From IMG/VR virus record IMGVR_UViG_2859810971_000005: a stretch of DNA of 16,792 bases; one strand, 5' to 3'. The position numbers were made by a program, and so were the translations under genes. Below, in pieces: positions 14,317 to 14,496 of the stretch; position 1 is the stretch's first letter, and each line of letters opens with the position of its first letter. This stretch comes from a virus. Its lineage: Duplodnaviria; Heunggongvirae; Uroviricota; Caudoviricetes. Under the pieces are notes generated by a model. That model was not told where the DNA came from. It did no database searches and saw only the letters and a list, made by a program, of their open reading frames with translations.

Positions 14317-14496
14317 GTGTCAACACACAAAAACGAAAGGCGTGGTAATCCTCCGTTCCAGTTCCGTTTAGATCCTGACTTACGGGAAAAGATGGAAAAG
14401 GCACAACAACAGGACGGCGATGATTCTCTTGCTGCCTGGATAAAGCGAATAATCCGCAAAGAATTACAGCAACGCGGCATAGAACCCAAAGGATAA
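14317..14496 (+). CDS. Arc/MetJ-type ribbon-helix-helix DNA-binding protein (putative island repressor)
   Basis: 59-aa ORF from GTG at 14317 with GAGGTG 8 nt upstream. PPFQFRLDPDLREKMEKAQQQDGDDSLAAWIKRIIRKEL has the beta-strand / helix / helix layout of Arc-like RHH proteins. It is the only clearly plus-strand gene in the island and is divergent from the early operon. Confidence 0.6.
   Translation: MSTHKNERRGNPPFQFRLDPDLREKMEKAQQQDGDDSLAAWIKRIIRKELQQRGIEPKG

Follow-up and report, generated by a model that had tools for sequence, protein, structure and literature searches.

Gram-positive phage-inducible islands (PICIs) are, in the published model, held silent by the repressors Stl/Rpr, whereas for Gram-negative PICIs only an activator, AlpA, is described; the difference has been called 'a mystery', and the existence of a repressor in the Gram-negative islands 'unclear', none being known (PMC6092414). 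A survey of how Gram-negative PICIs are organized makes no mention of ribbon-helix-helix (RHH) proteins (PMC10111431). The locus analysed here carries a small gene for a protein of this kind between alpA and the replication operon, in a slot that is itself undiscussed in the literature on Gram-negative PICIs, and this position makes the question of the 'missing repressor' directly testable. Judged from sequence comparison, the RHH protein is a stronger candidate than any so far for the 'missing' repressor of Gram-negative PICIs.

The window, by which we mean the whole stretch of 16,792 nt that was analysed, opens with phoQ, and its remainder is a phage-satellite island of the capsid-forming PICI type with nearly all of its genes on the minus strand (Table 1). 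The island adjoins phoQ, as does the prototype Gram-negative PICI EcCICFT073. In the island's minus-strand order, the icd-like gene is followed by small ORFs, a copy of IS1 and DUF4222, and past the primase come protease, portal, capsid and terminase genes; the early operon here comprises the icd-like gene, the small ORFs, DUF4222 and the primase. The island is decayed, with a major capsid gene split by an in-frame stop, a large terminase gene split by a frameshift, a phrog_2512 homologue frameshifted into two ORFs and IS1 interrupting the early operon at a point that separates the small ORFs from DUF4222/primase (decay sites at 2553-4213, 7637-8842, 12783-13540 and 13631-14039), and the RHH gene is intact. 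Because IS1 breaks the early operon, the control circuit described below may no longer matter in this particular island.

Table 1. Positions of the control-region elements and of the island genes around them, numbered from the first letter of the window
Feature	Position	Strand	Details
Primase	10501-12249	-	
icd-like gene	13987-14187	-	First in leftward early operon; NCBIfam phage_ICD_like, E 1.6e-17; PHROG matches
Predicted cis-antisense RNA	14169-14258	+	About 78 nt; -10 TATGAT (14169-74), start near 14181, runs to terminator
'Bridge' open frame	14196-14999	-	267 codons stop to stop; first ATG 14942
Terminator hairpin and T-run	14216-14258 (hairpin 14216-14250)	+	Intrinsic, covarying; abuts -35 of RHH promoter
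Predicted RHH promoter	14249-14277	+	-35 TTGCTT (14249-54), 17 bp, -10 TAATGT (14272-77)
Putative operator O1	14274-14289	none	ATGTGT-CACT-ACACAT; half-sites form a perfect palindrome
Predicted leftward early promoter	14294-14323	-	-35 TTGACA, reverse complement of 14318-23, over RHH codons 1-3
Putative operator O2	14315-14330	none	ACGTGT-CAAC-ACACAA; two mismatches to O1; over RHH start codon
RHH (Arc-like) protein gene	14317-14496	+	59 codons (59 aa), GTG start
Post-RHH hairpin	14506-14532	+	3' of RHH stop codon; right boundary of swapped cassette
orf2	14554-14730	+	58 aa; basic N-terminus; motif ERF(A/T)PC(A/S)FALE
Predicted intrinsic terminator of RHH-orf2 transcript	14826-14853	+	Stem GCGGCTCC/GGGGCCGC, then T7; read directly from sequence
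alpA	15000-15188	-	Convergent with RHH-orf2; Pfam Phage_AlpA, E 5e-18
Integrase	15563-16792	-	

The RHH ORF is a real gene under strong purifying selection. Its start codon stands 10 nt 3' of an SD sequence (GAGG, 14303-14306), and a protein search returned 117 clusters, spread over the Enterobacterales, Orbales and Pasteurellales and so over several orders of Gammaproteobacteria, nearly all of them exactly 59 aa long, to which a DNA-level locus scan for the gene added one locus from Oceanisphaera. Comparison of the plus frame with 32 orthologues of the same type gave 771 codon differences that are silent and 266 that change the amino acid (26% changing), as against 84-97% changing differences and many stops in four other frames over the gene; dN was 0.03-0.2, with dS saturated. 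Just 4 of 50,697 phage records encode relatives, among them a Pasteurella satellite of 15 kb whose genes are in the same order.

The ORF map bore out one statement of the sequence-only reading, an earlier account of the window made from its letters alone, namely that the RHH gene is divergent from the early operon. It is not, however, the only divergent gene, as had been claimed, since a conserved plus-strand gene, orf2, comes after it across a gap of 57 nt that contains a hairpin. The orf2 product matches phrog_21027 (E 1.7e-11) and is ~80% identical to that of EcCICFT073 orf2 (read by eye), with which it shares the C-terminus WQRTEPD; among the 80 loci from other species, tblastn found orf2 in one and no match in 79. 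Searches of Pfam, PHROG and PADLOC returned no toxin or defence family for orf2, Pfam giving no match at all; PADLOC gave nothing, so the RHH-orf2 pair is not among the defence systems it lists. The terminator predicted behind the two genes is weak on the minus strand and was missed by a consensus scan.

An Arc-like RHH fold had also been proposed from the sequence, and here a profile match and a structure model agree with the proposal. PHROG 228 ('Arc-like repressor') matches residues 5-57 with E 2.1e-6, the AlphaFold single-chain model (pLDDT 79.5) has an extended N-terminal segment followed by two helices, and the check by profile and structure that had been suggested as a way to refute the fold found a strand-helix-helix core of ~45 residues. 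Foldseek with this model lists Arc, NikR, VapB, MazE9, CopG and NikA, none of them significant, the query being very small. Pfam gave no RHH family for the protein at E <= 1, and a PDB sequence-profile search with it found no RHH chain. Aligned with Arc by hhalign, the family reached a marginal probability of 10.9%, with residues 11-36 placed on Arc 7-32 and R17, which is invariant in the family, on Arc R13. The predicted fold and the one profile support membership of the RHH superfamily, and the protein is a new representative of an already known RHH kind.

The sequence-only reading had further raised, as one of two options, an accessory regulator acquired with the control region; acquisition by this island in particular does not hold, as the same slot is occupied in EcCICFT073 and many others. 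A small plus-strand gene with its own repeats lies there in EcCICFT073, in other E. coli islands, in the Pasteurella satellite Pmp8 and in most of 80 loci from other genera. With the slot filled across islands, the RHH gene is part of the standard architecture and is not peculiar to this island. Between E. coli islands the small gene is swapped together with its promoter repeats and the flanks are kept, these being the icd-like leader with its hairpin on one side and the post-gene hairpin with orf2 on the other; the post-RHH hairpin is kept in loci whose RHH allele differs. Of 5,426 complete E. coli genomes, 245 carry a full-length type-1 cassette (that with a PPFQFRL strand in the protein), in a search whose output gives one place per record.

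Other alleles include a 101-aa 'YlcI/YnfO family' gene with CATGAAACACAC repeats in locus L002 and, at 9243-9653 of the EcCICFT073 locus (L087; NC_004431.1, 1377930-1388654), a 59-aa YlcI/YnfO-family gene with two AGGTGTGGCCCAC repeats. In EcCICFT073 the slot gene and then orf2 lie between alpA and the icd-like gene. This allele resembles the window's gene in its slot, its length of 59 aa, its own promoter repeats and the same orf2 next to it, and differs in that the window's protein falls below the cut-off of the family (NCBIfam NF041551; 20 bits, E 5.1e-4, against a cut-off of 30 bits). PGAP at times labels homologues of the window's protein YlcI/YnfO. As hhalign detected no homology between the window's RHH family and the EcCICFT073 allele (probability 0.4%), we call the two genes 'analogous occupants of one slot' and not one family. 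In a further locus (L005; NZ_AP024921.1, 1650-3180), a YlcI/YnfO-type and a type-1 control module stand in tandem, each with a small downstream ORF, separated by a remnant icd-like 5' end and hairpin; this layout suggests that cassettes were swapped through recombination at the leader.

Operator-like inverted repeats had been described across the promoter region of the RHH gene, and this description stood in part. The palindromes at O1 and O2 were retained, whereas the repeats at 14040-14260 were rejected as operators, one being the covarying plus-strand terminator hairpin (14216-14250) and the other a hairpin within the icd-like coding sequence. O1 and O2 are spaced 41 bp apart from centre to centre, and a 21-nt direct repeat (14272-92 and 14313-33, 81% identical) spans both. 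Inside the window alone the palindromes are not beyond chance, two matches being reached by 30 of 200 shuffles, and support for the operators therefore rests on comparison with other loci, for which a sample of 80 was fetched from other species.

The RHH proteins of these loci can be grouped into classes, and the differences between classes are confined to the N-terminal arm, strand and helix A (for example, RRGNPPFQFRLDPELR in the window, KGNKQIALRVEP, KRSPQYQMRLTEEF and KTDQYQIRLAHEL), with helix B (DGDxSLAxWIKRIIRKELQxRGIEPKG) nearly constant across all classes. ATGTGT-n4-ACACAT, with at most one mismatch, is present in all 37 type-1 loci and in 0 of 38 loci of other classes, and its central 4 nt are free to vary between loci; O2 is kept in type-1 loci. 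GGTnnTTACC occurs upstream in 12 of 12 QMRL-type loci and TGTAATTACA upstream in 4 of 4 DQYQIRL and KQYQMRL loci. Every class has two operator copies at the same two positions, and the operator class matches the N-terminal class of the protein without exception in 79 related loci. Class-matched operators are the pattern that would be expected of a repressor and its operators co-evolving new specificities, and we infer that the RHH protein binds palindromic operators at its own promoter. The narrower proposal that specificity is set by three predicted DNA-facing strand residues alone (aligned with Arc Q9, N11 and R13) was contradicted by loci L049 and L054, which have P-Q-R as in type 1 and yet a type-3 operator; owing to these exceptions, the claim is limited to the whole N-terminal module covarying with the operators.

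The operators are placed over two opposed predicted promoters. That of the RHH gene is weak (6 of 12 consensus matches, with a score modestly above that of shuffled controls), and its position and 17-bp spacing recur across loci; O1 lies over its -10 and start. O2 lies over the -35 of the predicted leftward early promoter, with O1 just past the predicted start of that promoter. The leftward -10 is poor in the window (GGTAAT at 16 bp or TAATGT at 18 bp). Among the 80 loci, 73 have a perfect leftward TTGACA over RHH codons 1-3, in every specificity class, and 69 have a leftward -10 with at least four of six matches 16-18 bp on. Codon 2 of the RHH gene is TCA in 76 of the 80, a synonymous-site constraint that protein coding would leave unexplained.

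The divergent leader (5' end of the leftward first gene, SD, hairpin and T-run) is present almost everywhere among the loci, and its cargo varies, with icd-like genes of 58-92 aa in islands, a primase joined straight to the leader in Xenorhabdus and a BREX operon preceded by the leader on plasmid pEC291_3. The RHH gene, operators and leader co-occur in many contexts, namely icd-like/primase islands, Xenorhabdus, Pasteurella Pmp8 and the plasmid-borne BREX locus, and the RHH module appears to be tied to the leftward operon rather than to the genes downstream of it.

Several of these contexts are of interest in themselves. In Xenorhabdus (L024, L027, L029, L032, L033 and L051; ~2094-4868), the conserved peptide start of the leader, MADTQHNQTRPKF, leads straight into a zinc-finger primase of 924 aa in place of a short icd-like protein, a fusion which implies that the first ~13 codons are kept for a nucleotide-level reason. 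On pEC291_3 (L089; NZ_AP027442.1, 2384-3104), the RHH/operator/leader unit is divergent from a WYL-BrxA-BrxB-BrxC (BREX) operon, and the unit, being found also outside satellites, seems to behave like a portable control cassette. In Kosakonia (L059, 5001-6991), likewise outside satellites, GmrSD and HEPN genes are found on the RHH strand, 3' of the RHH gene.

Next to the RHH promoter, on its leftward side, lies the terminator hairpin at 14216-14250. Across 46 diverse sequences, 96% of its cells are paired, compared with 38-60% in slid controls, and compensatory changes occur at 13 of 17 pairs, a result reached by 0 of 500 shuffles; the SL1 pair covaries between G-C and A-U, 24 versus 16. A strand tally (our own count from the per-pair table) gave 84 G.U cells versus at most 30 unpaired cells, and we favour selection of the hairpin in the plus-strand RNA, where the T-run would follow it. 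In 70 of 72 loci the antisense start codon of the first early gene has a TAnnnT box at a distance of 3-16 nt, and for most of them (~55, own count) this distance is exactly 10 nt; the residues encoded at the box vary between loci, and one of its fixed bases is a third codon position. Together, box and terminator hairpin predict a plus-strand RNA of ~78 nt (~14181-14258), which would be antisense to the ATG (14185-87) and SD of the icd-like gene. Rfam gave no family matching this RNA. In a scan of 12000-16792 at E <= 1, the C4 and isrK immunity RNAs, which have been noted in PICIs (PMC10111431), were absent, and a single sub-threshold match, to the 'rnk leader', fell in the hairpin region (24 bits versus 55).

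The bridge frame runs antisense through the whole module. It begins right after the alpA stop codon, in the frame of alpA, crosses orf2, the RHH gene, the promoters and the hairpin in antisense, and ends with a TAG (14196-98) within the SD, 8 nt before the icd-like ATG, an arrangement with a chance probability of ~3e-6. Upstream of the early gene, 27 of 72 loci have no stop for at least 104 codons in the frame of that gene, compared with 1 and 6 loci for the other two frames, and ~17 further loci, the window included, have a long ORF stopping 10-19 nt before the ATG. Of 33 type-1 RHH genes, 23 have no stop in the bridge frame, which is their wobble-aligned antisense frame. Pfam gave no family for the bridge translation, and the peptide sequence is not conserved, for example where it is antisense to orf2. 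The most attractive reading, which we offer by analogy and without confidence, would be that ribosomes must track the alpA read-through transcript into the early operon by way of the bridge, the RHH module then serving as a gate along this route.

From these comparisons we lean, somewhat beyond an even balance of belief, towards the RHH protein being an autoregulator that is also a repressor of the leftward icd-like-to-primase replication operon. The protein would presumably sit on O1 and O2 as a dimer of dimers. Bound at O1 it would cover the -10 and start site of its own promoter, and at O2 the ribosome site and start codon of its gene; it would in this way regulate its own synthesis, as the placement of operators over both promoter and start codon implies. 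The same two sites would block the predicted leftward -35 (TTGACA) and the early transcribed region, and would also lie on the route taken by any read-through transcript from alpA; since they cover both the leftward promoter and the read-through path, occupied operators would silence the icd-like-to-primase operon in quiescence. On this reading the RHH protein would be a maintenance or 'immunity' repressor, whose N-terminal arm, strand and helix A move between islands with the operators as one cassette, giving alleles of different specificity. The role of 'master repressor', for which the earlier account named it a candidate, is conjectural for the RHH protein; the master regulator established by experiment is AlpA.

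Repression of this kind has to be reconciled with what is known of AlpA, which, as an activator, is necessary and sufficient for induction of EcCICFT073 (PMC6092414) and is needed for Gram-negative PICI induction (PMC6092414; PMC11773190). Because EcCICFT073 carries an analogous slot gene and AlpA suffices there, any repression must be overridable by AlpA. Helper-induced AlpA might override it by read-through or antitermination from the alpA promoter, with the transcription colliding with the convergent RHH promoter and silencing it. In P. aeruginosa, AlpA works as a processive antiterminator (PMC7969949, PMC9371919); searched against the PDB, the window's AlpA matched one unnamed AlpA-family structure and not that antiterminator, so that antitermination by a PICI AlpA is an extrapolation from these two studies.

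The position of O1 and O2 over the RHH gene's own promoter and start codon would also suit a local autoregulator that controls its own rightward transcript (RHH with orf2 or other cargo) and leaves the leftward operon unaffected, and the GmrSD/HEPN defence genes 3' on the same strand in Kosakonia suggest slot cargo in need of a regulator. We regard this as rather unlikely, given that the downstream partner is not constant (orf2 is found in 1 of 80 loci, and Xenorhabdus has alpA directly next), that the divergent leader is kept almost everywhere and that the operators also lie over the conserved leftward TTGACA; if autoregulation were all, the RHH protein would be an ordinary small regulator. 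An RHH protein occurring together with a countertranscript that is predicted to overlap the translation start of the leading gene in the replication operon (the primase itself in Xenorhabdus) recalls instead a CopG-like replication controller that would act with the antisense RNA to set the level of the primase operon, and thus copy number, after induction. This analogy strikes us as improbable, because the RHH gene is divergent from the replication genes, unlike the co-transcribed copG, and the island is normally integrated and silent; such copy control and repression of the leftward operon differ only in timing.

Small RHH proteins are commonly antitoxins, and a two-gene layout with the RHH gene first, a weak NCBIfam VapB match (E 0.012) and the name 'HicB family' given to some homologues by JGI would all fit a type II toxin-antitoxin pair in which orf2 is the toxin. 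We rejected such a pair, which we hold to be very unlikely, because orf2 does not accompany the RHH gene consistently: nearly all RHH loci lack it, and it is, besides, set apart from the RHH gene by 57 nt with a hairpin and has no toxin or defence family match. The RHH protein, moreover, ends ~7 residues past helix B and so has no toxin-binding tail, the C-terminal extension that would bind a toxin not being found. As for the gene itself, a minus-strand frame that is open for 267 codons here and open in many loci, together with the long Icd-like forms that PGAP and PHROGs sometimes call, could mean that the RHH ORF is the shadow of a real minus-strand ORF of 248 aa (14196-14942) with the 'long Icd-like' form. 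The codon-difference counts led us to reject this as scarcely credible, with 26% of differences changing the amino acid in the plus RHH frame versus 47% in the bridge, the latter figure being what a wobble-aligned antisense frame should give; no family was found for the bridge translation, which is not conserved opposite orf2, and the RHH cassette swap replaces that portion of the bridge wholesale.

Repression of the leftward operon by the RHH protein may in turn be one part of a larger device. We tentatively propose, as a possibility well short of an even chance, a three-part gate in Gram-negative PICIs, including EcCICFT073, made up of the allele-specific RHH repressor, the cis-antisense RNA and the bridge frame, which AlpA read-through would overcome. 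If so, it would be the swapped RHH/operator cassettes that sort co-resident satellites into immunity types. Should the RHH protein be a repressor, the Gram-positive and Gram-negative PICI lineages would be mechanistically nearer to each other, the cassette alleles would predict coexistence or cross-regulation of satellites, and the module would be usable as a compact orthogonal repressor/operator set.

Among known systems, the closest functional analogues would be P22 immI and pMV158 copy control, and the closest positional analogue Stl/Rpr of Gram-positive PICIs. In P22 immI, the RHH repressors Mnt and Arc and the sar antisense RNA control ant. The window resembles this region in having a small RHH gene divergent from an operon proposed to be silenced, with putative operators in overlapping, opposed predicted promoters, and a predicted short antisense RNA over the ribosome site of the controlled gene. 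It differs in that the early operon of the island is without ant, the 59-aa RHH protein is without the C-terminal tetramerisation domain of Mnt, the host element is a satellite island and not a phage, and sequence similarity to Arc is marginal. Copy control in pMV158 combines the RHH protein CopG with antisense RNA II, and copG is co-transcribed with repB; in the window, by contrast, the RHH gene is divergent, and the replication genes are the primase operon of an integrated island.

The immI region of phage P1 has the order c4 RNA-icd-ant, and P4 immunity involves the CI RNA, with translation of a leader ORF preventing termination. The window is similar in its icd-like first gene, in the RNA predicted at the translation start of that gene and in the putatively translated leader frame before it, but its predicted RNA is cis-antisense instead of a processed sense-strand RNA, and an RHH protein is also present. 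Stl/Rpr are helix-turn-helix proteins and are larger than the window's 59-aa RHH protein, which is without a known inducer. Like the window's gene, Stl/Rpr are encoded divergently from an excision/replication operon and next to int (PMC6092414). These master repressors are inactivated by binding helper-phage proteins, whereas Gram-negative islands, unlike the Stl/Rpr PICIs, are induced through AlpA (PMC6092414).

Ant/Bro genes are present on the alpA side in some relatives. Read by eye, the N-terminus of the bridge ORF (MKIEYTPERGRGFV, window 14943-14999) resembles the starts of Bro/AntA-network genes that come after alpA in relatives, and the equivalent stretch of EcCICFT073 (L087, 8760-9240), likewise by eye, reads as a mosaic remnant of AntA and Bro-N domains.
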